Shown in pieces: positions 3,026-61,899 of a stretch of DNA of 64,000 nucleotides (position 1 is the stretch's first letter; each line of letters begins with the position of its first letter). This stretch comes from an uncultured Candidatus Bathyarchaeia archaeon (GTDB taxonomy: Archaea > Thermoproteota > CALKCG01 > B24 > JAWCPE01), in the NCBI GenBank assembly GCA_964396445.1, contig CAYNFI010000004.1:1007-65006 (forward strand), in the 5' to 3' direction. The notes beneath the pieces were generated by a model. The model had not been told where the DNA came from. It made no database searches and saw nothing but the letters and a program-made list of their open reading frames with translations. The translations under genes were made by a program, and so were the position numbers.

Positions 3026-6000
3026 TCATCCACCGTGTTTCCTTACCGTCACGTATACTTTCGCTTCACCGGGACGTAGAGTAAGCTTCGCCGGCGTAGC
3101 GACCGCGTTCTCACAATCTGCTAGATAACGGCAACCTGGGACGTTAACGGACCTCGGTTCATCGCTGAGGTTTACTAAGCCTATAACCCTTCTTTCACCT
3201 ACATCATAACTGAGCGTGTAAATGAAGGGGTCTCCCTCAAGTCCGCAGAGCTCGCTGAAAACCGTTGAAAGCCCTCTCCTAAGCTCTGCGAGGTCCGTGA
3301 ACTCTGCGACCCACCTTTCTGAACTCCAAACAACTACCTTTTTCCCGCGGTTCAGCAGGACTTTCTCCCCAACCTTCTCGTATCCTTCCCCTACGAACTG
3401 CCCGTCTTTGAAGCACAGCCCAAGTGCCGCAAGCCAGTCCTCATCCACTCTTCTAAACTCCAGCGCTGCTCTATCCAGTAACAAGCCTTTGCCACGTTGC
3501 AGGAGAGATTTGAGTTCGTCGGCTGTTATCGCCAGGGATTCTGACCCAGCGATGCATACGACCGCTGATTCCTCGGGATATGGAGGAGCTGAGACTGTAG
3601 TCGGTATCCCGATTGCCATGGTCAGCGGGAAGGGGAAGAGTTCCCCGAACAGGCTGGTGTCCTTAGACCTGGATACACATACGCTACCAATAGGCGCTTT
3701 GGCTCTAGGTATCATTGAATGGAATAAACGAAGTCTCGCCTTATCCTGCGCTAAAGCGTCGAAGTAGTCGGGGATTGTATACAACTCCTCGGCTATTTGA
3801 ACCTCGTCGACGCCGCTGAGAACCGATATGTAAGCCTTCTTAACAAGATTATGTGGTGAAAGTGAATTGGTGAAATTGAACCCAGGGGTAATAGCCGATG
3901 TCTCACTATGGATGTGAAGATTCTTTCCCCTGCAGAAGCTTAGGTGAAATTGGATGGAAAGAGCCTCGTTGACCTGCTCCCAAGATGGTTCGAAATCCTT
4001 ATCCGCGAAGTGTTCCTCGCCTATCCTCACGCATCTAGGCTTGCCGAGCGCTTGAACCTGTGCATTCAGGTCTACGCCGTACCTGTCCTCGGCAAAGCGC
4101 ATCCACATAACACCTAGAGCCACGTTTTCACTGATTTGATCAAGCCCCTCCCTAATTTCTCGCAAAAGTGAGGTTAACTGGCTACACCTAAACTGATGCC
4201 AATCCTGGAGGAGACTACTCCCCCGGTCATTAGCTTCTACAACATCCCGAAGCGCATTTCTATCCACGGTGTAGCCGTACTCAGCTTTGAACTGTGATAT
4301 GCATCTGTCACAATAGCAGCCTTCAGCTTGTATGCCGCCGCGACTTCCAAGCCTGAAATCATCGTCTAGGAGAACTTTCCTGAAACCCATACCCGCCAGT
4401 TCCTTGATGACGAAGAGAATTTCCCTTCGCGTCTGCGGGTTACTTGGGCAGGCCATGTGTGGAATAGGCTCCCCATTGGCGTTAATGCGGTAGTTCCAAT
4501 GCTCAGGAAGCTCTACATTTGCAACCATCGGTGGAAAAATGGTGCCTGGATGGCCAAGGGGCATGACGTTAGCCCATGTCCTGATGCCTTTGTTCTCCAA
4601 TTCTTCCTTGATTCTCCTCAACTGCTCTGGTGTAGCGCTCCATCGACCCCAATACCAAGCTATCAACGCCAAATGAGTGATCCCCGCAGAACGGCATCTT
4701 TCCACTAATTCTTCTAAATATTGATGTGAAGTCAGTAGTCGTGGTTGGTACTCGTAGCGGCTAACCAACAGAGGTTCCTCAGTGACGGGCTGTCTAAGCC
4801 TCCTCGACCATTCCTTGGCGGTCGTTACAAGTTTGTTGCCTTCGTTGTCATAGTATTCCATACCTCCCGTTTCAGCATTTATTTCTCGCTGGGCAAAGTT
4901 GTTAAGATAGTAGAGCGTCGGCTCGGTTATGTGTAAATTGTTAAGCATCGGTTCAGTATACTTTATGTCCTCATATTGATTTCCACCGATGTGATGCTTA
5001 GCGCCTACGTGGTTATTCCAATCCACTCCCTCGGTTAGAAAACCATAGGGACCATGGTGATGCTTGGCTATGGCTCTCAGTACGGTGAGGGCTTTCAGCA
5101 GATATTCCCGCTTACCAGTGTCCTCATAAGCTTCAAGGTATGCCAGCGATACCTCAGCGTTCTCCCATAGATAGGCTGTGTCCCACGATTCCTCCATGTA
5201 CAAGAGGCCTTTCGTGGCAAGGCTGTTCCTGTCCTCGCATATTTCAAATTCCTCAAGGCCGGCTAATGAATTCTCGTAAGCAAACCTCGTTACCTTTTTA
5301 TCATCCAATACCTTTCCGGCGAGTCTTAAAGTGCGGAATGCCACCGCATACGATACGTTTTCACGTTTATCGAAGGTATCATGGTTTATACTGCCGTATA
5401 AACCCCCGTGCTCGATGAATGTTTTAACCCTTTCCCTGATAACAACCCTATAATCAGCTATCTTTCTTCGCGTTAATTCACACATCAACTGAACTGTGAA
5501 AAGACCGTCCCCGCTTTGGTCGAAGATTGGGTCGTTGCCCCCGTCTGGTTTTTTATCATATGACAAGCCCTCCGCCGTGCTTCTCCTAGGATACCAGCCG
5601 TTTGGGGCAAGCTTCACCTTGCCATCAATCCACATAGCCGTCTTAGCTGCAACTTCCCGCATTTTCCGCTTATTTGCTTCATCAGCCAATACGTCGCTGA
5701 ATATTAGGAGCTGGTAAGCCATCTTCGCCATAGAACCGGTGCAAATCCAATCGTTGTTTTTCGCGTAATTTAGGTAGTACTCGCCGGTGATAACATTACG
5801 ATATGGAGTGATGAATCCTGTTTCATAGTCGATGAATCCATCCTCTAGAACATGGTCGAGTATCAAGAGCGCCTTCTCAGACAATGTTAAGTCATCGATG
5901 AAGGAGGCGTAAAGATACAGCTCGTAAGCTCCGCCGATGGCATTAGCAGCCCAGCCTGGTCCCTCAAGGTCGCCGAAGCCATGCCAGCCTTGTCTATCAC

Positions 6001-6166
6001 CTTTGACATCAACGAAGCTTGACTTTGACATCAAATGCTCCCTGTAGGCAGTGAGTGTACGTTTCACCATGAACTCAATTGAGTCTCTCATGCTGTCAAA
6101 AATGGTATAACAGGGATCAGCGGAAAGGTAGAAACTCGGGTTTTCATCCACCATACGAACCATCAC
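3026..6166 (-). CDS. large multidomain glycoside-hydrolase-like protein (1046 aa)
   Basis: Uninterrupted 3.1-kb ORF. The N-terminal half resembles (alpha/alpha)6-toroid sugar enzymes. The centre resembles GH-like TIM barrels (LLDDDFRLG, CYCDRCISQFKAEYG). The precise family is not assignable by eye. Confidence 0.5.
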   Translation of the reverse strand: MMVRMVDENPSFYLSADPCYTIFDSMRDSIEFMVKRTLTAYREHLMSKSSFVDVKGDRQGWHGFGDLEGPGWAANAIGGAYELYLYASFIDDLTLSEKALLILDHVLEDGFIDYETGFITPYRNVITGEYYLNYAKNNDWICTGSMAKMAYQLLIFSDVLADEANKRKMREVAAKTAMWIDGKVKLAPNGWYPRRSTAEGLSYDKKPDGGNDPIFDQSGDGLFTVQLMCELTRRKIADYRVVIRERVKTFIEHGGLYGSINHDTFDKRENVSYAVAFRTLRLAGKVLDDKKVTRFAYENSLAGLEEFEICEDRNSLATKGLLYMEESWDTAYLWENAEVSLAYLEAYEDTGKREYLLKALTVLRAIAKHHHGPYGFLTEGVDWNNHVGAKHHIGGNQYEDIKYTEPMLNNLHITEPTLYYLNNFAQREINAETGGMEYYDNEGNKLVTTAKEWSRRLRQPVTEEPLLVSRYEYQPRLLTSHQYLEELVERCRSAGITHLALIAWYWGRWSATPEQLRRIKEELENKGIRTWANVMPLGHPGTIFPPMVANVELPEHWNYRINANGEPIPHMACPSNPQTRREILFVIKELAGMGFRKVLLDDDFRLGSRGGIQAEGCYCDRCISQFKAEYGYTVDRNALRDVVEANDRGSSLLQDWHQFRCSQLTSLLREIREGLDQISENVALGVMWMRFAEDRYGVDLNAQVQALGKPRCVRIGEEHFADKDFEPSWEQVNEALSIQFHLSFCRGKNLHIHSETSAITPGFNFTNSLSPHNLVKKAYISVLSGVDEVQIAEELYTIPDYFDALAQDKARLRLFHSMIPRAKAPIGSVCVSRSKDTSLFGELFPFPLTMAIGIPTTVSAPPYPEESAVVCIAGSESLAITADELKSLLQRGKGLLLDRAALEFRRVDEDWLAALGLCFKDGQFVGEGYEKVGEKVLLNRGKKVVVWSSERWVAEFTDLAELRRGLSTVFSELCGLEGDPFIYTLSYDVGERRVIGLVNLSDEPRSVNVPGCRYLADCENAVATPAKLTLRPGEAKVYVTVRKHGG

Positions 6167-6788: not shown

Positions 6789-8567
6789 TTAGAGCATAAA
6801 CCTTTCATAGGTTTTCATCGCCTCGCTTAGAACCATGTCCTTCAAATCTCTTTCAGGTTCATCGATCCGGTGGAGGGTTAGGTAGGGGTTGGCTTCAAGG
6901 GTTTTCACCTCTTCCGGGTAACGCCATCCGTAGAGGTGGAAGACCGCAACCCTATGCCCGTCCTCCCCGAGGCTTCTAAGCATGGGAGACGCCTCCTTGA
7001 TGTTCTGCCAGCCCCCGTCGGTGATGACGACGATGAAGCATGGTCCCCCGGCTTCCTTAACCAGTTCCTTAAGCACAGGCGTAGGTATGATGGTTAAGGC
7101 GTTAAAATGCGTTGCTAACACGAGTTCCTTAACCTCAGCTTGGTCGCTCCAATCGGCGACGAGGTGGTTTGTGGAGAAGGAAACCGCTGCGGCGTCACCT
7201 CCAGCCCATAGGGCGCTTAGGTAAGCGATGTACGCGGCTGTTGAGGCTTCGTCGAAGGCGTTTGACATGCTCTGGCTTGAGTCGAGCACCGTGACAACTG
7301 AGGGAACGTAGCCTGAGACCGGTCCCTGCCCGTAGCCCATCAGGCTTTCATGCCACTTAAGCGTTGTCACCTCGGGGATGATAGGGCCTTCGTCGAGGCT
7401 TGTCTCAAGGTCGAGGGCTTCGATGTCATCCTCGACACTCCACTCATCGGGGTAGCTTAAAACCTTCCAAGTAGGCTTAATCCTCGGGCTTTCAGTGAGG
7501 TATTGGATAAGGGTCTCCGCCGCCCTGGCACGGTACCAGAAACGCTTCCAAAGGGCGTCCTTATCCAACAGCAAGGGCTTTACCCCATGCTTCCTCCCGA
7601 GGGCTGTGGGAAGCTCATAGGATTCACCCTTCAACTTTCCCTCCAAGGCTTCCCCGGGCTTCTCCCTGCCTAAACCTGAAACCTTCTCTTCACGGCTTCC
7701 CCCAGCCCCCATAGCCGCACCAGGCTTCGTCGCCCTCTCAACCAAAGCCCGCACCTTCCCTTTCTCAAAGCTTCCCTCAGTCAGCCTAGGCTTCACCCAC
7801 TGTTCAAAGAAGCTACGCGCTTCCTCCCTGTCCTTAATCCCTCCGAGCACTTGGGCTACGAGCGTGGCGGAGTTTGGTGAGAAGTCCTCGCGGACTACAA
7901 GCCTCGCTCCGCCAAGCCGTCCACCGTACTTCCAGGTCGCTGAATCCTTAAGCAGCTTTGGGTTACGCGTCTTGAACGTTGAGAGGATGGAAGCGATGGT
8001 TTCCACCTTGACGCGCCAAGGCTTAGCTGAACGTATTGTTTCCGCTATAAGCCCGGCGTAGGTTGCGAACTCCTTAGGCACATGTCTACTCTTGATCTCA
8101 GGGTACATGGCTTTGTAAACGGCGTAGCCGAGCCTCCCCGCGCCCTTAGGGGAAGCCTTCCTAAACTCTTCCTCCACATGGTATGGAAGCCTATGGAAAC
8201 GGTTCCTTAAGTAGACGCCGTCCGTTTGGAGGTCGCAGAACAGGTGGAGGGTGAAGTAGGCGAGGCTCCTGCTCCCCGTAACCCTGTAAGCCGCCTTCTG
8301 CAACTGGTAAGCCGTCTTCACGTCGTAGGGGCAGTAGTGGGCGTGGCTGAGGTCGTGGCGAAGCGCCCAGAGCAGGTGCGCCTCAGGGTTCAGGCTTCCC
8401 GAGAAGGCTTCAGGGTTAACGTACACAGCTCCCTTGGAGACAGGGGCTGGATACCTACGCCTAGGAGCCTTCCCCTCCCTTGAAACCTCGAGCCTGCATG
8501 GGGGGCAGTAGAGTTCCACACGTGCCTGGTCGAAGGCTTTAACGATATCCGCTTCCTTCAACGCCAC
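6789..8567 (-). CDS. VWA-domain protein with N-terminal metallopeptidase-like region (DUF2201-like MoxR partner)
   Basis: MIDAS DxSxS motif (VLDSSQSMS) and IVVITDGG in the C-terminal half. The N-terminal region has LRHDLSHAH, an HDxxH variant of HExxH. GTG start. Confidence 0.7.
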   Translation of the reverse strand: MALKEADIVKAFDQARVELYCPPCRLEVSREGKAPRRRYPAPVSKGAVYVNPEAFSGSLNPEAHLLWALRHDLSHAHYCPYDVKTAYQLQKAAYRVTGSRSLAYFTLHLFCDLQTDGVYLRNRFHRLPYHVEEEFRKASPKGAGRLGYAVYKAMYPEIKSRHVPKEFATYAGLIAETIRSAKPWRVKVETIASILSTFKTRNPKLLKDSATWKYGGRLGGARLVVREDFSPNSATLVAQVLGGIKDREEARSFFEQWVKPRLTEGSFEKGKVRALVERATKPGAAMGAGGSREEKVSGLGREKPGEALEGKLKGESYELPTALGRKHGVKPLLLDKDALWKRFWYRARAAETLIQYLTESPRIKPTWKVLSYPDEWSVEDDIEALDLETSLDEGPIIPEVTTLKWHESLMGYGQGPVSGYVPSVVTVLDSSQSMSNAFDEASTAAYIAYLSALWAGGDAAAVSFSTNHLVADWSDQAEVKELVLATHFNALTIIPTPVLKELVKEAGGPCFIVVITDGGWQNIKEASPMLRSLGEDGHRVAVFHLYGWRYPEEVKTLEANPYLTLHRIDEPERDLKDMVLSEAMKTYERFML

Positions 8568-16252: not shown

Positions 16253-17677
16253 GTGTGTTTGAAAACAGGTGTAGTCGAGCCTTACAGGTTACCGAAAGGC
16301 CCTAACCTATTCGTGGACTGGCGCTACGTCCGAGCTGGTGCCGTTCAGTGGGTTTCTAAGGATAATACCCCACTTTCCCTCTGGGGAGTAGAGGGGCAGG
16401 CTGGTACGCGCCCATCACCCATGGATGTACCTAAGGGTATCCGCATCGTCGTTCAAAAGGCTCAGAAAAGCGAGCCGTTTCTAACACGTACTAAGCCTTG
16501 GGAACACATGCTATACTGCTATTCCACGGTCATATACACTGAAGCATGTTACAGGCTTTGGTATGAGGTAAGCACCCCTGAACACGCGGACATACTGTGT
16601 TACGCGGAGTCAAAGGATGGAATGGTATGGGATAAGCCGTCCTTGGGAATTATGCAGTACCAAGGAATGGATGCGAACATCGTCTTCGGGGGAAGCCTCT
16701 GCCCGGAAACCGGGTTCCACGGAGGCGGAGTGTTCCCAGACCCCTCCGCTACATCCGGTGAACGCTATAAGATGGTCTTCTTGGGAAAAACCGGTGTATG
16801 CGGCGCAGTCTCACACGATGGACTGCACTGGAAACAGTTTGCAGAGCCTTTGTTGGCTTTAAGCAGTGATACGCAGAACACCGCGTACTACGATGACTCG
16901 TTGAAGCGGTATGTGGGGTTCTTCAGAATGTGGCGTCATGGAAGGCGTTGCGTAGGCAGAGCTGAGACAGACGTCTTTCACCGATGGCCTAACCCCACGC
17001 CGGTTTTATGCCCCAGCCCTAGTCAAGATGCCTCCGATGACTGGTACACCAACAGCAAATCCACGTATCCTGGCACAGTGGACTACCATTTCATGTTTCC
17101 CGCGCTCTACCACCGCGCCGTAGACAGTACGGAGCTCCACATGTTTTCAAGCCCAGACGGGATCGTGTGGATACAGGTGCCCGGAGGACCAGTTCTTTCA
17201 CCCGGTCCACCAGGCTCTTGGGACAGTGGCTGTATCTTCGGCGGCGTCGGTTTAGTCCCACTTCCAAACGACCGAGTTGGCTTACCGTACACGGGATTTC
17301 CTGTTCCCCACAAGTACCCGCGGAGCCTCCCGATGGGATCCATAGCCTATGCTTTGTGGCCTAGGGAGCGTTTAACCGCTTTAGAGGCATCAGAAGAGGG
17401 GGAATTTACCACACCGCAGCTTATCTTCACAGGGCGGAAGCTGCTTTTAAACGTACAGACAAAGAGGGCTGGGCAGGTTCTGGCTGAAGCGGCGGACAGT
17501 CATGGTACGCCTCTACCTGGACGAAGCTTCGCCGAAGCCGACCCAGTGAACGGAGATGCCGCCGATTTCCCAGTGACTTGGAAGGGTGAAGCAGACCTGG
17601 GGCATACTGTAGGTCAACCAGTGGTTCTAAGATTCCGCCTAAGAGCGGCGAAGCTTTTTGCATTTGAATTCGTATAA
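16253..17677 (+). CDS. putative beta-propeller glycoside hydrolase-like protein
   Basis: 474-aa ORF with repeated W/Y-rich blade-like segments (YAESKDGMVWDKP, VSHDGLHWKQ, SSPDGIVWIQ) as in GH32/43/130-type propellers. Family uncertain. Confidence 0.4.
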   Translation: MCLKTGVVEPYRLPKGPNLFVDWRYVRAGAVQWVSKDNTPLSLWGVEGQAGTRPSPMDVPKGIRIVVQKAQKSEPFLTRTKPWEHMLYCYSTVIYTEACYRLWYEVSTPEHADILCYAESKDGMVWDKPSLGIMQYQGMDANIVFGGSLCPETGFHGGGVFPDPSATSGERYKMVFLGKTGVCGAVSHDGLHWKQFAEPLLALSSDTQNTAYYDDSLKRYVGFFRMWRHGRRCVGRAETDVFHRWPNPTPVLCPSPSQDASDDWYTNSKSTYPGTVDYHFMFPALYHRAVDSTELHMFSSPDGIVWIQVPGGPVLSPGPPGSWDSGCIFGGVGLVPLPNDRVGLPYTGFPVPHKYPRSLPMGSIAYALWPRERLTALEASEEGEFTTPQLIFTGRKLLLNVQTKRAGQVLAEAADSHGTPLPGRSFAEADPVNGDAADFPVTWKGEADLGHTVGQPVVLRFRLRAAKLFAFEFV

Positions 17678-30004: not shown

Positions 30005-31252
30005 TCACCTCTTACCTTCCCTTAACGCCTCCTGTACAAGCTTTATAACTCTCTCCCTCTCAACCCAGTCCACGAAAACAAGGATGCTTGAAGTGATGGT
30101 TAGGATTCCGGCGATGTTGATGGCGTTTTCATGCAGGGGCCCTGCGATACTACCGATGACACCTGGGGTTTCCTCTAAACCAACACCTCTAACCTTGATG
30201 AAGGCAAGGTTCCTCCTCGCGGCGAGGGCTAAGGTTTCGCTGTGATGCTCGAGGACTACGGTGTGGAGGGCTTCAAGTAGCCTTGACGCGTTCTCTTCTG
30301 GGAGGTAGAGTATGAGGGAATCAGCGTTCGTCGACATTCCCAGGTTTGAGGCTCCCACCTTCCTAACTTCCTCTACAACGCGGCTTAGAACCTTCGGCGA
30401 GTCTGCTAGGGCTTTGCCCACGATGGTGACGGCTACAACGGGTCGCTCGTAGGCTACGTCTACGGCAAGCTCCTTTGGGAGACCGCCGTGGATGATGGTT
30501 CCCTCAGAGTCAAGCCTTCCAGCGTTGTAGTCGATAACCTTCACGTCTATGGATGGGTCCTTGTACTTCAAAGCCTTTTTATGGATAAACTTAACATCGG
30601 AATCAGCGAGGCCGGCTAAGGCTTCAACCCCTATCTCCCTGAGCACCCTTGGCTTACTCACCACCTTTGGGTCGGCGGTCATGATGCCCTCAACGCTTGT
30701 CACGAGGACGATCTGGTCGGCTTTAAGCGCCTTACCTAGGATGAACGCTGTGGTATCGCTTCCACCCCTGCCAAGAGTGGTTATGCTCCCATCCTTTGTC
30801 TTACCTATGAACCCAGGGATCACGGGGACCACGCCTCGCTCCATGACAGGTTGAACGTGTCTCTGAACGAGTTCCTCGCATAGTGGAACCGCGGGTTTGG
30901 CGTTGTTGAACGCTTCATCGGTGATTATCGGCCACTCATCGTCGGCTGGGTCGAAGTATCGGGTTTCAACACCGCATTCCCTTAAACCGGCTGTGAATAC
31001 CCGCGCGCTCGTCCTTTCACCCATGGACAGGATGTCGTCGAGTTCTTTCACGGATACATCGCTGCCACATGCCTGCTTAGCCGTTTCGATGAGGTTGTCC
31101 GTTGTTTTACCTATGGCTGAGACAACCACCGCAACCTTCGTGCCATTCTTAACCTCATCGGATACGGCCTTAATGGCTTTCAGTATCCTAGCTCCATCGC
31201 CTAAACTGGCGCCACCAAATTTCACAACGAGACAACGATTCTTCTCCTTCAC
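30005..31252 (-). CDS. lysC: aspartate kinase with C-terminal ACT domains
   Basis: VVKFGGASL, TLGRGGSDTTA, and two ACT-like repeats. GTG start. Confidence 0.85.
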   Translation of the reverse strand: MKEKNRCLVVKFGGASLGDGARILKAIKAVSDEVKNGTKVAVVVSAIGKTTDNLIETAKQACGSDVSVKELDDILSMGERTSARVFTAGLRECGVETRYFDPADDEWPIITDEAFNNAKPAVPLCEELVQRHVQPVMERGVVPVIPGFIGKTKDGSITTLGRGGSDTTAFILGKALKADQIVLVTSVEGIMTADPKVVSKPRVLREIGVEALAGLADSDVKFIHKKALKYKDPSIDVKVIDYNAGRLDSEGTIIHGGLPKELAVDVAYERPVVAVTIVGKALADSPKVLSRVVEEVRKVGASNLGMSTNADSLILYLPEENASRLLEALHTVVLEHHSETLALAARRNLAFIKVRGVGLEETPGVIGSIAGPLHENAINIAGILTITSSILVFVDWVERERVIKLVQEALREGKR

Positions 31253-31307
31253 CTTAAACCACCCCGAAGAGGACCGGAACCTTGAAGCCTAAGCGCTTAA
31301 CCAGCTC

Positions 31308-31323
31308 GGTCCCCTTAGGGACC
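31308..31323 (-). promoter_or_regulatory. hairpin GGUCCC-UAAG-GGGACC enclosing the leader-ORF stop codon
   Basis: Perfect 6-bp stem. The UAA stop of the 14-codon ORF lies in the tetraloop. A second GGUCC (31275..31271) could pair alternatively with GGGACC. Confidence 0.45.
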
Positions 31324-31359
31324 GAAATAATAGAAGTAGAAGTAGCCGAACATACGCAT
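31315..31359 (-). CDS. candidate leader peptide MRMFGYFYFYYFGP upstream of the aromatic amino-acid operon
   Basis: ATG CGT ATG TTC GGC TAC TTC TAC TTC TAT TAT TTC GGT CCC TAA. Eight of 14 codons are Phe/Tyr. It ends 62 nt upstream of the aspartate kinase GTG. Confidence 0.4.
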   Translation of the reverse strand: MRMFGYFYFYYFGP

Positions 31360-49034: not shown

Positions 49035-51020
49035 TTGGAGGTTTCAGAAACTGATGTGAAGAGGTTTTTCCCCTACCCAGAATTCCGACCTTATCAACTC
49101 GATACGATACGCTTCACCTATAACGTTATGAAAAGTGGGAGGATCGGGCTTCTCTCAGCGCCCTGCGGCGTCGGTAAAAGCATCTCTGTCCTATCCGCCT
49201 TCTTCACAGCGCGGTATGCGGGCTTCGGGCAGCGGCTTCTAGCCTTAACGCGGACGCGGAACCAGCTGGAGATCTACAGTCGAGAATTGAAGCGGATTAA
49301 GGAACACTCTGACCTAAGGTTTACGGCTTCGATGTTTAAGAGCAAGCAGGACATGTGTCCCTTGGTCCGTGAGGGTAAGGAGCTTAAGGACATAGCTTAC
49401 GGAGACTTTCTCCGTTACTGTAGAAGCCTTAAAACAGGCGCGTTCGGGCAAACCTGTGAGCACTACGAACGGACTTTTCAAGGTTGGAAACCATGTTGGA
49501 GAACGCTTCAAACGGTATATAGGATTACTAAAGACGGTCCGTTTCTACCCGATGAAGTGTACACTGTATGCGTTGAATCAGGGTTGTGCCCATACGAGGT
49601 GACGAAGTTCCTAGCGAAGCAAGCAGATGTCATCATCGGCAACTACAACTACCTCCTTGTACAGCCCATAAGGGCTTCAATCCTAGGAAAAGCCGGAGTA
49701 AGGCTTGAGAAGGTTAATTGCATACTCGATGAAGCCCATTCACTTCCAAGGTACGCGGCTGGAATCCTCTCCGATGAGCTTTCAACCGTCTCCATTAAAC
49801 GCGCCTTAGGCGAGGTTGAACAATACGGGGTTAGGGATTATGGGATCCTATCGGTTCTCAAGGAACTCGTCGAGGATTTGGGAAGCCGAGCTTATACGCG
49901 GTATGGTAAGGACGGAGCTTTGGTAATAAAGCGACAGAATGCAGTAAACACCTTTCTCAAGGATCTTGCGTTACAGGGTGAGGATGAGCTCCTAAAGCTC
50001 CTCTCAGACCTCTCAGATGAAGGTGAAATGGTTCGATGGAAGAGGGTTGAGGGAGGTAAGACTCCTGTCTCCTATCTCTCTAGATGTGCTTCCTTCCTAA
50101 CGGAGTGGGTGGGTATCGGCGAGTTAGGTTACATCCGCTACGCGATTGCTGGGGATAAGGATAATGGTGAGGGTGTTCATAGCCGGATTGGGGTTAAATG
50201 CCTCGACCCATCCATCAGCGGAAACGTGATTAACAGCCTCCACGCCGCTGTTGTTATGTCAGGAACCCTCTGGGACATGGATTACTACACAGATGTCCTC
50301 GGGTTGAACAGAGAAAGGGTTGACTCAATCGAAGTACCCAGTCCCTTCCCGAAGAAGCACAGGTTAATAATTGTTGACAAGGCGGTGACAACACGTTATC
50401 CAATGAGGGGTACAGCTGAGTGGATAAAGATCGCGGCTCACATTGAAGGGATTTCTGAAGTCGTAAAAGGGAGCGCCGCTTTCTACTTCCCATCATACGA
50501 GGTTATGGAAGCCGTTTTGAAACATGTGAAAACACCCTACCCGATCCTCGTTGAGCGAAGGGATACAGATGTACGAGATGTTCTCACCTTCCTCAAATCA
50601 GGGAGTAAAGTACTCGTCTTCGGCGTGGCAACGGGGAAGATCAGCGAGGGCATCGACATGGCTGTTAGAGGACGAAGCCTCCTAACATGCGTGGCAATCG
50701 TAGGCTTACCGTACCCAAAGAAGACGGAAACTCAATACGCGTTATTAAAGTACTTCGAGGCGAAGTTCGGCGGGGAAGGCTTCACGTACGCGAATGAGGT
50801 TCCCTGCCTAACCGCCATAGCTCAGTCAGCTGGGAGGCTACTCCGCAGCCCTGAGGATAAAGGCGTCATTGTTCTCATGGATGGAAGGGTCACGGGAAGG
50901 CTGAGGGAGAAGCTTCCAAAGGAGTGGATGGACGATATGGTAGTGCACACGAATGTTGAAAAGCTTCTGATACGCATAAGAACTTTTCAAGAACAGTTCA
51001 TGAACGCGGAGAAGCCTTAA
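49035..51020 (+). CDS. xpd: XPD/Rad3-family 5'-3' DNA helicase with Fe-S domain
   Basis: Walker A SAPCGVGKS, DEAH box (ILDEAHSL), and four Cys between them (CPLV, YCRS, TCEH, LCPYE). TTG start. Confidence 0.85.
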   Translation: MEVSETDVKRFFPYPEFRPYQLDTIRFTYNVMKSGRIGLLSAPCGVGKSISVLSAFFTARYAGFGQRLLALTRTRNQLEIYSRELKRIKEHSDLRFTASMFKSKQDMCPLVREGKELKDIAYGDFLRYCRSLKTGAFGQTCEHYERTFQGWKPCWRTLQTVYRITKDGPFLPDEVYTVCVESGLCPYEVTKFLAKQADVIIGNYNYLLVQPIRASILGKAGVRLEKVNCILDEAHSLPRYAAGILSDELSTVSIKRALGEVEQYGVRDYGILSVLKELVEDLGSRAYTRYGKDGALVIKRQNAVNTFLKDLALQGEDELLKLLSDLSDEGEMVRWKRVEGGKTPVSYLSRCASFLTEWVGIGELGYIRYAIAGDKDNGEGVHSRIGVKCLDPSISGNVINSLHAAVVMSGTLWDMDYYTDVLGLNRERVDSIEVPSPFPKKHRLIIVDKAVTTRYPMRGTAEWIKIAAHIEGISEVVKGSAAFYFPSYEVMEAVLKHVKTPYPILVERRDTDVRDVLTFLKSGSKVLVFGVATGKISEGIDMAVRGRSLLTCVAIVGLPYPKKTETQYALLKYFEAKFGGEGFTYANEVPCLTAIAQSAGRLLRSPEDKGVIVLMDGRVTGRLREKLPKEWMDDMVVHTNVEKLLIRIRTFQEQFMNAEKP

Positions 51021-51022
51021 CA

Positions 51023-52030
51023 CTAATGTGTTCTTAATGAAGCGTCCAATATGTCGAGGAACTCCTGCACTCTCTCTGTTGGCACCTCCACACCCACGGC
51101 TTTCGGATGTCCACCACCATGACCGCCAAGCTTCATAGCCAATTTCCTACACAGCTCGTTTAGGTTTATCAAGGGATCTCTGGTTCTAAGGCTTAGGTCT
51201 GCTCTCCCGTTTCTCAATGTGACACCGACTCCAACCTTTGCTCCTGTAATCGCTGAAGCGTAAATGGCGGCTTTCCCGCCGAAGCCTTTAACTGGAAGCT
51301 GGGTTACTACGGCGAGGTTACCCCTTCTCTCACTGAATTTTTTCACATACTCATAAACCCTATACTCGTCTTTCAATGTCTTCAAGGCTTCATTAACCAC
51401 CTCCTCGACTTCACTCGGGCTCCGTCCCTCAGCGAGTTGTTCAACAACCATCCTCTGGAAATCATAGTCTCTTCTCCGCGTTAGGGCTTCAACAAGAAGC
51501 CCAGATTCTAGATACAATACCCTTTTATCCCATCGATTAAGCTCATCGGCAATGAGTGGCGAATGATCGGCGTAGTCGCCTACGGCTCCATAAACAGCGA
51601 GGAAGACTGATTCAGAGCCAGCCAAGTCTTGGAAGGCTTTATAGGTTAATTCTGAAGCGCTGACCCGCTCATCATGGATGAGTGTCACTCCATGGAAGTC
51701 CAAGGCAGTGGTAGAGAGAGGTAGCTGATGGTGGTCGATGTACATAACCCTCCCCCCGATAGAAACAAGCCTCCTAAACTCCATAAGAACAGCGTCCCTG
51801 TCTTCCTCGTTGATGGCTAAGTCGCAGACCACAAGGTTTAACCTAGCCTCCAATCGGCTTAGGTCTCTACGTAAGTCGGTTGGACGGGAAAATACGACAT
51901 CGCTTTTCGGGATAGCCCTTTTCACGATAGCTCCCGCGCATACGCCATCACAGTCTATGGGTGAAAGCTAAGGCCTTCACTCTCCATGTGTGATGACGAC
52001 AAAGTCACCCTCAACCAGCCAGTCAACCAT
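51023..52030 (-). CDS. DHH/DHHA1 phosphoesterase, coding sequence interrupted by a 27-nt BHB element
   Basis: Motifs II (VVCDLA), III (YIDHHQ), IV (GAVGDYAD) and DHHA1 (GGHGGGHPKA) lie in ORF 51023..51925. Motif I and 17 N-terminal codons (MVDWLVEGDFVVITHG..DCDG) continue in the same frame up to ATG 52030, but across TGA and TAG. Confidence 0.7.
51955..51981 (-). other. candidate bulge-helix-bulge intron (27 nt; boundaries ambiguous by 1-2 nt because both bulges are AGA)
   Basis: 4-bp helix AUGG/CCAU flanked by two 3-nt AGA bulges on opposite strands. The outer helix is CGUCAUCACA/UGUGAUGGCG and the inner helix GUGAAGG/CUUUCAC with a 6-nt loop. Excision removes both stops and keeps the frame. 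Confidence 0.55.
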
Positions 52031-52175
52031 GTGTATATCCCGAAGTCCCTTCTAAGTCCATTGCGATATTAACTTTCCCTACCTAAGAGAAGATCCATGT
52101 TCTTTGGATAAAATTTAAAAAGTTTCTACAACATGAAAACATCTTAAATAGGTGGAGTCAGAAATATAATAAAAG

Positions 52176-52641: not shown

Positions 52642-54420
52642 ATGTCGAATAGAAAGCCTAACGCGCTAGGAGTTAAGGGAATTTTTACATTAACGGTTAT
52701 CATCTTAACGCTCTTCACAATAATTGATGTAACTTCTCTGGGAAAAGCTGAAGCAGGGACTCAGACGAGTGCGGAGTACCAGTATTTCTTCACAGTCAAC
52801 GAAGATGGTGACACAGATGTCGAAACAATTTTCATCCATGAGACACCAAGTCAAGGTTCGAGTTGGTTACTGGTTCCGAGTTATACGGAGTTTAGGAATC
52901 AGACAGCACGCGGCGTCATAGCCTCATATAAACTTCAACCGCTCACCTCAGAAGGTGTTGTTAACCCCTTCTGGCAGAACTACAGCTTTACCTATACCCC
53001 TGTAAACGGCGTCTTCAACCTCACCCTATGGTTCAGGTTTTCACACTATACCCAGATCATCGAGCCCGACGGCTTCTTTCTCTCCCCACAACTAGAGTAC
53101 AACCCCTCTGCAAACGCTAGGTTGTTTTTAGTTCTACCTCAAAACACTGAGGTGAAGGGGTCTGATGTAAAGCTTCTAGACTACTTGTCAGGAAGTATAA
53201 ACGCTCCAAGCGGCCTCCTTATTACGCGCCTAGCCGATAGAAGGCTTAGGATCACGGGGTTGGCTACGGCATCAAGCCGTCTAGCCGTTGCCTTCACCCT
53301 TCCCGGTAGGAAACCTGATTTAATAACGCCCCCGCCGAGCATAGGGAGGTTCTCCGCGTATACGGTGAAGAGGTATGAGGATCGGGCTTGGAGTATCCTC
53401 GCGCTCTTTAACGCCACATACCCCACCTTCACTGAAACCTTCGGTGTAGACATCGGAAACATGAGCTTTGAGTTCTTCGTTCCATCTATGAATGAGTTCC
53501 TTCAAGGCCTAGCTGGGTTTGTTCCCCTTTCGGGAAAGGATACACGCATCTTTCTGAACCCCTTCTTCTACAGGATGATGGAAGGGTACATCGAGATCGT
53601 AGCCCTCCACGAGTTAGTCCATCACTTCTTATTGGATGCTGGGATATCACCTTCAAGGCTTTGGGTTCACGAGGGTATGGCTGAATACTTCAGCACCGAG
53701 GTTGCGAAGATTGTTGGGTATGCAACGGCTGCTATGGAGAATGAGAACGCCTTGAAAACCATCGCTGAGGGGCTAGGTGGAAACCTCGGGTTTATACAGG
53801 AATGGACGGTAGGAGCGACACCTCGTGACGTTAAGAAGTACTATGCCGCGGCTTACGAGGTCTTCAAGGTTTTAGGAGACCGCTACGGTGGATTAAACTA
53901 CTACAAAAGTTTCTTCAGCTTAATCAAGGGTTATATGAATAGGACTGATGACGCCATCATCGTTTCCACGCTCGGAAGGACTGCTAACGATGTACCAGCG
54001 GTTATCACCCAGTTTGGAACATGGGGTTTTACAAATATCATCGACCCCTTGGAGATGGAAAGCCGAATTGAACAGGCGCAGACCTTGATTTCAGAGCTTA
54101 ACCCCGTTCTCCAACCCTATAAAATCCTTGCTCAGTGGACCTTAAGCCGTGCTGTAGAAGCGTACCGTAATGGAAGATACTATACGGCCTTAACCTACAT
54201 TAACGACGCTGTTTTCCTCGCCGAGAACGCTTTCACCTTAACGGTTGCCACATTCATAGGCGTCGCCTTCATTGCTCTGGCTGTCTACGGGTTTAAGATA
54301 AAGCGTACTGCTCGGGTACCTGGTCCCAGGCTTGAGGAGGCAAGGTATTGCTTATACTGCGGTTCTAGGCTTCCGCCTGAAGCCGTTTACTGCCCTACAT
54401 GTGGACTGAAGCAAAAGTGA
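52642..54420 (+). CDS. membrane-anchored putative zinc metallopeptidase with C-terminal zinc ribbon
   Basis: N-terminal TM (IFTLTVIILTLFTII), HExxH plus downstream Glu (ALHELVHH...HEGMAEY), a second TM near the C-terminus, then CLYCGSRLPPEAVYCPTCG. Confidence 0.5.
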   Translation: MSNRKPNALGVKGIFTLTVIILTLFTIIDVTSLGKAEAGTQTSAEYQYFFTVNEDGDTDVETIFIHETPSQGSSWLLVPSYTEFRNQTARGVIASYKLQPLTSEGVVNPFWQNYSFTYTPVNGVFNLTLWFRFSHYTQIIEPDGFFLSPQLEYNPSANARLFLVLPQNTEVKGSDVKLLDYLSGSINAPSGLLITRLADRRLRITGLATASSRLAVAFTLPGRKPDLITPPPSIGRFSAYTVKRYEDRAWSILALFNATYPTFTETFGVDIGNMSFEFFVPSMNEFLQGLAGFVPLSGKDTRIFLNPFFYRMMEGYIEIVALHELVHHFLLDAGISPSRLWVHEGMAEYFSTEVAKIVGYATAAMENENALKTIAEGLGGNLGFIQEWTVGATPRDVKKYYAAAYEVFKVLGDRYGGLNYYKSFFSLIKGYMNRTDDAIIVSTLGRTANDVPAVITQFGTWGFTNIIDPLEMESRIEQAQTLISELNPVLQPYKILAQWTLSRAVEAYRNGRYYTALTYINDAVFLAENAFTLTVATFIGVAFIALAVYGFKIKRTARVPGPRLEEARYCLYCGSRLPPEAVYCPTCGLKQK

Positions 54421-54432
54421 GACAGGATGTTG

Positions 54433-55107
54433 CTAAGTGTAAAGCTTGGGGCATTCAAACCTCACAGGGCAAGTAAAGCAACGTGGTTTTCTGGCTTTAC
54501 AGTAGCTTCGGCCTAGGCGGATGAGGAGTAGATGCGCTTCCATATACAAAGCTGGTGAATACAGGATCTGAAGTGTTCTACGCGTCTCCTCGTATCCTGC
54601 TTTTTGCGACGCGAAGCCCGTCCTCTTAGAAACTCTCCAGATATGCGTGTCAATAGGGAATGTCGGCATATGCATTGAGAAGAGGAGGAGAACATCGGCT
54701 GTCTTCGGTCCGACACCTGGAAGCCTCATCAGTCTCTGCCTCGCCTCATCCAATGGAAGCGTAAATAGGCTGTTTAAGCTGCCTTTAAACTCCTGAACGA
54801 GTGTCTGCGCAAGCCGCTTAAGCATACGCGCTTTGTTTCTGTAGAGACCGGCTACTTTTATAGCCTCACCCAGCTCCTCCTCATCGGCTAAAGCGATGGT
54901 TTCAGGAGTCACCCTAAACCTAACTGACAAGTTTTTAAAAGCCCTTCCAGAGTTCAAATCGTTTGTATGCTGGGAAAGCACGGTAGCAACTAGGGCCTCG
55001 AAAGGTTCTAAATCGCGGCGCGTAACCTCAACTTTACCGAACTCTTGAAAGAGGATGTTCAAGACCCTATGCGCTCTATCTTTCTCACTTACACCTACCA
55101 TTCCCAT
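54433..55107 (-). CDS. nth: endonuclease III family DNA glycosylase
   Basis: HhH-GPD (LMRLPGVGPKTADVLLLF...D) and a C-terminal CX6CX2CX5C Fe-S loop (CKARKPRCFTCPVRFEC). Confidence 0.85.
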   Translation of the reverse strand: MGMVGVSEKDRAHRVLNILFQEFGKVEVTRRDLEPFEALVATVLSQHTNDLNSGRAFKNLSVRFRVTPETIALADEEELGEAIKVAGLYRNKARMLKRLAQTLVQEFKGSLNSLFTLPLDEARQRLMRLPGVGPKTADVLLLFSMHMPTFPIDTHIWRVSKRTGFASQKAGYEETRRTLQILYSPALYMEAHLLLIRLGRSYCKARKPRCFTCPVRFECPKLYT

Positions 55108-61368: not shown

Positions 61369-61899
61369 ATGGTTAATAGGGACTTCATCAATGACTTCAA
61401 CAGAGGTGTCTATAAAATGGCGTATGGAGAGTCGCATGGTAGCGGCGAAAGCATTAAGGTGGAGAAGCTGGAGCCTAGTTCAAGGGAAGTGAACGTGTCG
61501 GTGAAGGTTGTTTCCAAGACAGCCGTAAGGGATACAATATCGCGAAGCGATGGTTCAACACACCGCGTCACCGATGCCTTGGTTGGAGATGAAACCGGAT
61601 GTATCTACCTTACCCTTTGGGATGACAACATTGAGAGGGTTAAGGACGGCGATACAATTGCCATAAGGAACGGCTACATCTCGTTGTTCAGGGGCTCAAT
61701 GCGTCTAAACATCGGTCGATACGGTAGCTTTGAGCCTACGGAAGCCACTATTGGCGAAGTCAAAACGGATAATAACCTTTCTGACAAGCAGTATGAGCAG
61801 CAGCCGCGTTACCCTACCTTCCGCCCCTCCTTTAGAGACGAGGGTTACCGTGGAGGCAGTGGAGGTAGAAGAGGTTACCGACCTAGACGAAGATATTAA
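61369..61899 (+). CDS. ssb: OB-fold single-stranded DNA-binding protein (crenarchaeal SSB type) with RGG-rich tail
   Basis: ALVGDETGCIYLTLWDDN...IRNGYISLFRGSMRLNIG OB core plus a YRGGSGGRRGYRPRRRY tail. The start may be ATG 61417 or a later GTG. Confidence 0.75.
   Translation: MVNRDFINDFNRGVYKMAYGESHGSGESIKVEKLEPSSREVNVSVKVVSKTAVRDTISRSDGSTHRVTDALVGDETGCIYLTLWDDNIERVKDGDTIAIRNGYISLFRGSMRLNIGRYGSFEPTEATIGEVKTDNNLSDKQYEQQPRYPTFRPSFRDEGYRGGSGGRRGYRPRRRY

Follow-up and report, generated by a model that had tools for sequence, protein, structure and literature searches.

A predicted bulge-helix-bulge intron splits the catalytic motif of a DHH/DHHA1 phosphoesterase gene in Bathyarchaeia

Introduction

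In archaeal messenger RNAs, full-text literature searches recovered only two introns of the bulge-helix-bulge (BHB) type, one in the coding sequence of cbf5 and the other in the 5' untranslated region (5'-UTR) of HVO_1309. The cbf5 intron, which resides in a pseudouridine synthase gene of Sulfolobales and Desulfurococcales and whose splicing has been confirmed experimentally (Watanabe 2002; Yoshinari 2006; Yokobori 2009, PMC2738675), is short, is cut between the second and third residues of its bulges, mostly adopts an unconventional (relaxed) BHB, and shows a patchy distribution implying gain and loss, along with mis-annotation of its hosts as truncated or split genes. The report of the HVO_1309 intron in Haloferax volcanii names cbf5 as the only other case (Schwarz et al. 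2020, PMC7714728), and a 2025 structural paper on splicing endonucleases cites only the cbf5 work for pre-mRNA splicing (PMC12397907). Here, we describe a 27-nucleotide (nt) insert in the gene for a DHH/DHHA1 phosphoesterase (hereafter, the DHH gene) of an uncultured Candidatus Bathyarchaeia archaeon, at positions 51981..51955 on the minus strand of a 64,000-nt stretch of contig CAYNFI010000004.1 (positions 1,007 to 65,006; assembly GCA_964396445.1). This whole stretch is referred to as the window, and coordinates are window positions. The sequence and its fold, same-site introns in orthologues, frame restoration, covariation, exon complementarity, purifying selection, and the intact modelled protein fold, all computed here, make it very probable that the insert is a genuinely spliced BHB intron within coding sequence. 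The initial annotation of this stretch, made from the DNA letters without database searches, had proposed such an intron and had taken cbf5 to be the only established mRNA host, which holds for coding regions but not for mRNAs in general, given the HVO_1309 5'-UTR intron (PMC7714728).

The DHH intron works like the cbf5 intron but stands outside the cbf5 family. The shortness, the relaxed BHB, the patchy distribution, and the mis-annotation described above for cbf5 recur here, as does the placement of the predicted cuts within the bulges, likewise in coding sequence and in a lineage of the TACK (Thaumarchaeota, Aigarchaeota, Crenarchaeota, and Korarchaeota) archaea. However, the host is an unrelated enzyme in another archaeal class, the helices of the two introns are unrelated in sequence, and the outer helix in the DHH gene is formed wholly by coding sequence of the two exons; moreover, splicing of the cbf5 intron is an experimental fact, whereas that of the DHH intron is predicted. 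Only the type of position, G|AY within the codon of a catalytic Asp, is held in common, and this may be a coincidence or may reflect a site preference of BHB intron gain (PMC2738675). The HVO_1309 transcript is likewise an mRNA substrate of the tRNA splicing endonuclease, outside tRNA and rRNA, but its intron lies in a euryarchaeal untranslated leader, where it interrupts no frame. The DHH intron, in contrast, splits a catalytic motif, so that splicing would be obligatory for production of the protein.

Two further systems are comparable. Archaeal pre-tRNA introns, which adopt the canonical hBHBh' form at position 37/38 or, in TACK archaea, the relaxed HBh' and hBH forms, share with the DHH intron the order of outer helix (h), central helix (H), bulge, and intronic hairpin (h'), the 4-bp central helix, and the 3-nt bulges. 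They are processed by the endonuclease EndA and the ligase RtcB, the enzymes presumed for the DHH intron as well, and relaxed bulges are typical of lineages with an (αβ)2 EndA (PMC5829648). The DHH intron differs from them in having no tRNA body, in its coding exons, and in a coding-imposed C·C mismatch at the 3' bulge. Splicing of HAC1 and XBP1 mRNAs by IRE1 together with tRNA ligase or RtcB likewise involves spliceosome-independent excision of a short, structured mRNA intron and RtcB-type ligation, and alters the encoded protein; IRE1, however, recognises stem-loops rather than a BHB, and the reaction is stress-regulated.

Results and discussion

Predicted excision of the insert restores a complete gene

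Read on the minus strand from ATG 52030, the gene runs MVDWLVEGDFVVITHGE-TGA-RP-TAG-LSPIDCDGVCAGAIVKRA... in one frame to the stop at 51023, with two stop codons between two same-frame parts, just as the initial annotation had read it. Exon 1 (51982..52030) comprises the ATG, 15 more codons, and the G that begins the Asp-17 codon and encodes MVDWLVEGDFVVITHG, that is, strand β1 and the His of motif I. The predicted intron (AGUGAAGGCCUUAGCUUUCACCCAUAG; 51955..51981) carries the in-frame TGA and TAG, and exon 2 (51023..51954) extends from the AC of the Asp-17 codon to the stop, encoding the remainder of the phosphoesterase. Removal of these 27 nt gives ...VVITHGDCDGVCAGAIV... and a 326-amino-acid (aa) protein. 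Excision after the second nucleotide of each of the two AGA bulges described below joins ...CAU GGA G to AC UGU GAU GGC..., which eliminates both stops and yields HGDCDG, in line with the HxDxDG motif anticipated in that annotation. Mechanical calling of open reading frames (ORFs) places the start at GTG 51925 and produces a 300-aa product; this GTG is residue 27 of the spliced protein, past motif I, again as originally noted. The public gene call (P0001) likewise starts the gene late.

The homologues of the protein are archaeal, with the closest ones in Bathyarchaeia, and most of them are full length, reading THGDCDG, THGDGDG, or GHGDADG at motif I, whereas five close homologues, along with P0001 from the window, are N-terminally truncated. 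Among 160 archaeal orthologue loci scanned in genome and metagenome collections, 153 encode a contiguous H-x-D-x-D-G; the other seven comprise four copies of intron-bearing alleles and three loci without the region. The expectation that intron-less relatives would read THGDCDG or its like at this point was thus borne out.

Inserts are present in six bathyarchaeial alleles, namely, the window allele (W) and alleles L001, L003, L004, L007, and L009, whose host proteins are 42-77% identical to one another. All six lie at one position, between the first and second nucleotides of the codon for the first Asp of motif I. The inserts other than that of W measure 30 nt in L001 (AGCCACCGCGCCAGUAGACGGUGCCCGGAG), L003 (AGCCAUAGCCUCACUAGGCGACGCCCGGAG), and L004 (AGCCACCCUCUUCCUAGGCGGGGCCCGGAG), 31 nt in L009 (AGCCCUAGUCCCGGUUGACGGGGGCCCGGAG), and 19 nt in L007 (AGCUUAGGUUAGCCCGUAG), and their interiors are largely unrelated and unalignable across alleles. 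At 19 and 31 nt, two of the inserts are not divisible by three and leave exon 1 in a different frame from exon 2, and excision of AG|A...AG|A generates, in all six alleles, a single ORF of ~320-350 codons with an upstream start and the motif (T/A)HGDCDG. Because these two inserts shift the frame and exact excision restores it, we exclude stop-codon read-through, toleration of the insertion in frame, and a fixed frameshift. Stop-codon recoding to selenocysteine or pyrrolysine and programmed frameshifting were also rejected, given that W carries two different in-frame stops, TGA and TAG, and that the inserts are of 3n as well as 3n+1 length; an intein was rejected as well, the insert being too short and containing stops.

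Every intron-bearing allele has at least one UAG, usually in or near the hairpin loop (51970..51968 in W), and the unspliced messages of the six alleles would terminate 1-8 codons past the junction. The presence of UAG in every intron may reflect selection against translation of unspliced mRNA or only shared ancestry. Orthology of the window and L004 genes is confirmed by their shared gene order, in which an HhH-GPD glycosylase gene and a gene for a ~600-aa protein accompany the DHH gene.

The insert and its flanks form a conserved BHB-like fold

In the RNA of the window allele, the outer, exon-exon helix h pairs CGUCAUCACA (51989..51998) with UGUGAUGGCG (51943..51952) over 10 bp, one of them G-U. 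The central 4-bp helix H pairs AUGG (51984..51987), a part of the His and Gly codons, with the intronic CCAU (51957..51960), and AGA bulges are located at the 5' splice site (51981..51983; predicted cut after G51982) and at the 3' splice site (51954..51956; predicted cut after G51955), all on the minus strand. These elements are all present as they had been drawn from the sequence alone. The inner helix GUGAAGG/CUUUCAC is present too, but in place of the 7 bp and 6-nt loop initially assigned to it, the minimum free energy (MFE) structure has an eighth pair and a 4-nt loop, so that the intron hairpin h' (51961..51980) reads GUGAAGG(C)/(G)CUUUCAC; its loop contains the UAG. The 72-nt region has an MFE of -26.5 kcal/mol (z = -3.4), and none of 200 shuffled sequences folds as well. 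In its unconstrained MFE structure, C51988 pairs with G51955, the canonical register being only 0.2 kcal/mol dearer.

The strand order h-H-bulge-h' is the same on both strands, which is the topology of pre-tRNA, and the cuts that it specifies give the conserved HGDCDG. In terms of the established tRNA numbering, it can be derived from the intron at 37/38, the 31:39 pair that ends the anticodon stem, the 4-bp central helix, and cleavage behind the second bulge residue, as given for cbf5 (PMC2738675). The strict hBHBh' structure, with both bulges closed directly by pairs and exactly 4 bp apart, does not form, whereas the relaxed BHB, that is, HBh' accompanied by an outer helix, is found in all six alleles. 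The initial description of the motif as near-perfect therefore applies to its 5' half, where bulge and 4-bp helix are canonical (in both W and L007), but not to the 3' bulge, which is relaxed by the flanking C51988·C51953 mismatch. The MFE structures of all six alleles contain helix H (3-4 bp), the AGA bulge, and an h' closed by G-C, with the second AGA at the symmetric position, followed by an outer helix of 8-10 bp. The 5' AGA is unpaired in every unconstrained MFE structure (6/6), and the canonical register costs at most 0.8 kcal/mol.

Covariation was assessed for 17 specified pairs in the six-allele alignment, with the 3' partners slid by 1-3 columns and 500 shuffles as controls. Paired combinations account for 87% of the cells, against 32-46% with slid partners; both members differ in 5 of the 17 pairs, a number attained by 2 of the 500 shuffles; and the covariation score of 0.275 (shuffled mean, 0.157) was reached in none. 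In the central helix, the wobble base of the His codon (CAU/CAC) covaries with an intron base, forming U-A in W and C-G in the other five alleles. Two pairs of the outer helix show compensatory changes between A-U and G-C: Thr-ACA/Cys-UGU alternates with Ala-GCN/Cys-UGC, and Ile-AUC/Asp-GAU with Val-GUC/Asp-GAC. In h', the closing G-C pair is invariant, whereas the next two pairs are changed on both sides. Intron-bearing relatives thus keep the helix and bulge geometry, with compensation evident in all three helices, as foreseen when the intron was first proposed.

The exon-exon helix is specific to the intron-bearing genes. It comprises 8-10 consecutive base pairs in all six, compared to a mean longest run of 3.2 in the 153 intron-less orthologues (L015-L174), which indicates that the exon complementarity is kept only where the intron is present. 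Two intron-less loci with 9-bp complementarity, L158 and L171, were considered as recent intron losers and rejected: they are distant, of the Desulfurococcales type, and pair mostly through G·U, so that the match is a coincidence.

The predicted spliced product models as an intact DHH/DHHA1 phosphoesterase

The Pfam DHH and DHHA1 domains both score above their cut-offs only in the spliced protein; the called ORF (P0001) matches DHHA1 only. In alignment, the N-terminus of the spliced protein matches motif I of two archaeal nucleases of known structure, GAN and RecJ2 (lISHRDADGITAGAIL, VITHHDTDGLSSGGIL). In an alignment of 37 homologues, H15, D17, D19, and G20 are invariant, as are D90-H91-H92 (the DHH triad) and G296-G-G-H299 (the GGGH motif of DHHA1), the hallmarks of the superfamily. 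AlphaFold models the 326-aa protein with a mean predicted local distance difference test score (pLDDT) of 95.3 and a predicted template modelling score (pTM) of 0.91; β1 spans residues 10-15 and α1 residues 18-30, and the junction G16|D17 falls in the catalytic β1-α1 turn. The closest solved folds are those of archaeal RecJ-Cdc45, RecJ2, archaeal PAP phosphatase, and NrnA. The protein is no equivalog of archaeal RecJ or GAN, scoring far under the cut-offs of both, and is a DHH/DHHA1 phosphoesterase distantly related to RecJ, NrnA, and PAP phosphatase. The annotated ORF, which begins at residue 27, is without β1, motif I, and most of α1.

Alternative explanations

The insert might be retained in the mRNA and an N-terminally truncated protein made from an internal start, the hairpin being a structured leader or a remnant. 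Such ORFs, of 240-302 aa, are predicted by all gene callers, and truncation leaves DHHA1 and the DHH triad in place. However, the starts called in different alleles do not correspond, lying at residue 27 in W but ~90 residues into the protein in L004, and the product would be devoid of β1 and of the invariant H15, D17, and D19. Furthermore, the DCDGVC[A/S] codons, which follow the insert and precede every called start, are conserved through synonymous differences (UGU/UGC, GAU/GAC, GGC/GGG, and GUA/GUC) and hence are translated, which requires initiation in exon 1. Exon 1 itself retains an ORF, a start codon, and a TATA-like box. An in-frame ATG is found 42-48 nt upstream of the His codon in five of the six alleles, and all six have a TTAATA/TTAGTA/TTTAAG box at a distance of 73-84 nt upstream of that codon, which is 29-42 nt upstream of the ATG in those five. 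In the window, the box is TTAATA (52067..52072, minus strand), upstream of exon 1, and judging from archaeal promoter architecture, it would serve as a promoter element. Collectively, these observations make expression of a truncated protein quite improbable.

Translational bypassing, a hop of the kind known from T4 gene 60 with take-off at GGA and landing on a downstream GGA, would give the same protein without splicing. The junctions of L001, L003, L004, and L009 are compatible with this scenario, each having a direct repeat CGGAGA...CGGAGA with matched GGA codons and with a stop and a hairpin between them. Yet, the W insert ends in ...CCAUAG|AC, where the landing context is AUA GAC, and that of L007 ends in ...CCGUAG|AC (GUA GAC); neither offers a landing GGA matching the take-off codon. 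What is conserved across alleles is complementarity to the 5' strand (AUGG/CCAU, ACGG/CCGU, and ACGG/CCGG) rather than identity, and the CGGAGA repeat of the four alleles is a by-product of the nearly palindromic CCGG. Bypassing also leaves unexplained the insert-specific exon-exon helix of 8-10 bp and the compensatory changes. Bypassing is not known to occur in archaea, and we regard it as very unlikely here.

An old, small insertion, e.g., a footprint of a miniature inverted-repeat transposable element (MITE) with a 3-nt AGA duplication, could have inactivated the gene. The in-frame stops, the AGA at both ends of the insert, and the insertion sequence (IS) encoding a DDE transposase just upstream of the gene in L001 and L182 would fit a pseudogene. 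Against this, the pairwise ratio of nonsynonymous to synonymous substitution rates (dN/dS) among the intron-bearing genes is 0.13-0.18 where dS is measurable (0.8-1.6), and no further disruption of the gene is seen in any of the six lineages. Moreover, the interior of the insert drifts freely while the helices are held by compensatory change, its length varies from 19 to 31 nt with exact excision boundaries, and the exon complementarity is maintained. Decay that does not preserve the structure, named in the initial annotation as the mark of a plain pseudogene, is thus absent from the orthologues, in which DCDGVC is kept through synonymous changes, and inactivation appears most unlikely. A sequencing or assembly artefact is vanishingly improbable because 11 contigs in JGI, ENA, and Logan assemblies, which stem from independent samples and assemblers, agree exactly in the 27-nt allele and its flanks, and other metagenome-assembled genomes carry diverged alleles. 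DNA with the window allele is present in, among others, JGI 3300031593, 3300031604, 3300031876, and 3300025144, runs SRR9661777, SRR5215466, SRR8539650, and ERR12264628, and ENA ERZ781360 and ERZ27245483.

A proposed model of DHH pre-mRNA splicing

With these alternatives weighed, we return to excision of a BHB intron as the favoured interpretation. Under this model, transcription would proceed from a promoter upstream of ATG 52030. In the pre-mRNA, the V-I-T codons of exon 1 would pair with the C-D-G codons of exon 2 to form the outer helix, the His and Gly codons (AUGG) would form the 4-bp central helix with the intronic CCAU, and the intron interior would fold as a hairpin, with one AGA bulge per strand, located 3' of the central-helix segment of that strand. 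EndA, which in TACK archaea is of the broad-specificity (αβ)2 type and would tolerate the relaxed 3' bulge, would cut after G51982 and G51955, the second nucleotide of each bulge. RtcB would ligate ...CAUGGAG to ACUGUGAUGG..., and the 27-mer would be freed, probably in circular form. The spliced junction would read CACAUGGAG|ACUGUGAUGGCG, where the new GAC codon would specify Asp-17 and supply the metal-binding motif I (H15-G-D17-C-D19-G20) with its first Asp. Only spliced mRNA could give the 326-aa enzyme, and the unspliced W message would terminate at the TGA one codon past the junction. In this scheme, we infer EndA and RtcB as the enzymes, the exact phosphodiesters that would be cut, and the use of the promoter.

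Relaxed motifs are cut only by (αβ)2 and ε2 endonucleases with a specificity loop, and (αβ)2 EndA with a Crenarchaea-specific loop is conserved across TACK archaea in an account that does not name Bathyarchaeia (PMC5829648). The cbf5 introns, too, are mostly unconventional BHBs (PMC2738675).

Several observations weigh against the proposed splicing. The 3' bulge together with the C·C mismatch formally makes a 1x4 internal loop rather than a clean 3-nt bulge, and this mismatch recurs at the 3' site of all six alleles, where it is forced by coding, His being CAY and Asp GAY. In four alleles, A·G occupies the outermost pair of the central helix and U·U the first pair of the outer helix, so that a ~3x6 internal loop results, and the MFE favours a slightly different local pairing. 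The covariation rests on six sequences, with several of the changes on a single branch and shuffle controls that ignore phylogeny; because six related sequences are few and the shuffles phylogeny-blind, the exon-helix control is given more weight. A search of 60 related loci for the native BHB of tRNA introns found only two tRNA-Met genes, both intron-less. The protein collection contains no protein derived from a spliced transcript, no near-identical protein of full length, and no near-identical intron-less allele, and all 15 members of the six truncated-protein clusters are N-terminally truncated. A scan of 31 of the window's 53 long ORFs, the largest ones, detected neither EndA nor RtcB, and the EndA type that the model assigns to Bathyarchaeia is presumed by analogy with other TACK lineages.

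Apparent gain and loss of the intron

A neighbour-joining tree of 144 orthologues unites all six intron-bearing genes in a clade of, at minimum, eight tips. The other two tips, L017 and L097 (proteins P0003 and P0002), are intron-less, read THGDGDG, and have lost the exon-exon complementarity. Of 100 bootstrap replicates, 95 nest these two among the intron-bearing genes, whereas only 4 recover the intron-bearing genes alone as monophyletic. The simplest history compatible with this tree would be one gain followed by one precise loss, a pattern like that described for cbf5. Intron-less orthologues are complementary at 6.1 of the 10 outer-helix positions, compared to ~3.75 expected at random, because the (A/V)-I-(T/A) codons are near reverse complements of the C-D-G codons. 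A proto-helix of this kind, present before the intron, may have favoured its gain here.

Implications for archaeal mRNA splicing and annotation

If the proposed splicing takes place, DHH is the second archaeal protein-coding gene known to need splicing by tRNA enzymes, cbf5 having stood alone for more than 20 years. The unrelated host gene, the different archaeal class, and the long persistence of the intron would indicate that the tRNA machinery is generally capable of splicing mRNAs and that this is no quirk of a single gene. The six intron variants, at 19-31 nt, are a natural test set for what the (αβ)2 EndA accepts outside tRNA. The case would also demonstrate both gain and precise loss of an intron in a prokaryotic protein-coding gene, and the location of the intron at intrinsically complementary exon codons suggests how such introns can arise.

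The public models of the intron-bearing orthologues (MEM2904693.1, MEM3046626.1 [P0013], and the members of clusters P0001, P0004, P0006, P0007, and P0019) are all truncated, at 240-302 aa, with non-homologous starts. The intron thus accounts for a systematic annotation error, by which the catalytic motif is missing from every public model. As a tentative and rather doubtful extension, BHB introns in protein genes could be recurrent and overlooked in uncultured TACK archaea, hidden behind 'truncated' gene calls and with a preference for catalytic-Asp codons (G|AY) of enzymes that act on nucleic acids, the type of position seen in both cbf5 and DHH. Were this the case, sites whose flanking codons are reverse complements (ACA/UGU, AUC/GAU, and GCC/GGC) would be favoured, and the machinery of tRNA splicing would be needed to produce the active enzyme and might control its production.

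Other BHB-like sites and the gene neighbourhood

Both strands of the window were searched with a purpose-written BHB scanner, with 40 dinucleotide shuffles as the control. The strict scan produced 69 loose matches, among which the DHH site clearly ranks first on either strand; the output of a relaxed scan was mostly noise. A motif of equal quality appeared in 1 of the 40 shuffles (~0.025 expected per 64 kb), so that the structure by itself is unusual but not decisive. No tRNA genes or Rfam families were detected in the window. An ORF-joining test yielded two further candidates, both rejected. One of these, at 31307-31288 (minus strand), forms an unremarkable hairpin (z = -1.6) ahead of the natural start of an aspartate kinase gene, and the other, at 56661-56493, is the junction of two abutting genes for ABC-transporter subunits (ATPase and permease). 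The long, imperfect hairpin at 31345..31250 (minus strand; z = -1.6), in the intergenic region upstream of the aspartate kinase gene (GTG 31252), has BHB-like local geometry but is probably no 5'-UTR intron.

The DHH gene is convergent with a gene for an XPD/Rad3-type helicase (49035..51020, plus strand). An HhH-GPD glycosylase gene (54433..55107, minus strand) is located nearby, in an arrangement also seen in L004, and an SSB-like OB-fold protein is encoded ~9 kb away (61369..61899, plus strand). This neighbourhood hints at a DNA-repair role for the RecJ-like enzyme. In one lineage, represented by L001 (1584..2789) and L182 (1..989), a gene for a DDE transposase of the IS240/rve_3 type is positioned immediately upstream of the intron-bearing DHH gene and replaces the neighbours seen in the window and L004. 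Four long ORFs of the window, 3026..6166 (minus strand; 1046 aa), 6789..8567 (minus; 592 aa), 16253..17677 (plus; 474 aa), and 52642..54420 (plus; 592 aa), have no Pfam match at E <= 1e-5. The last of these adjoins the DHH gene, contains a metalloprotease-like HELVHH motif and a C-terminal zinc-ribbon-like CxxC...CxxC, and has an equivalently placed counterpart of 608 aa in L004.

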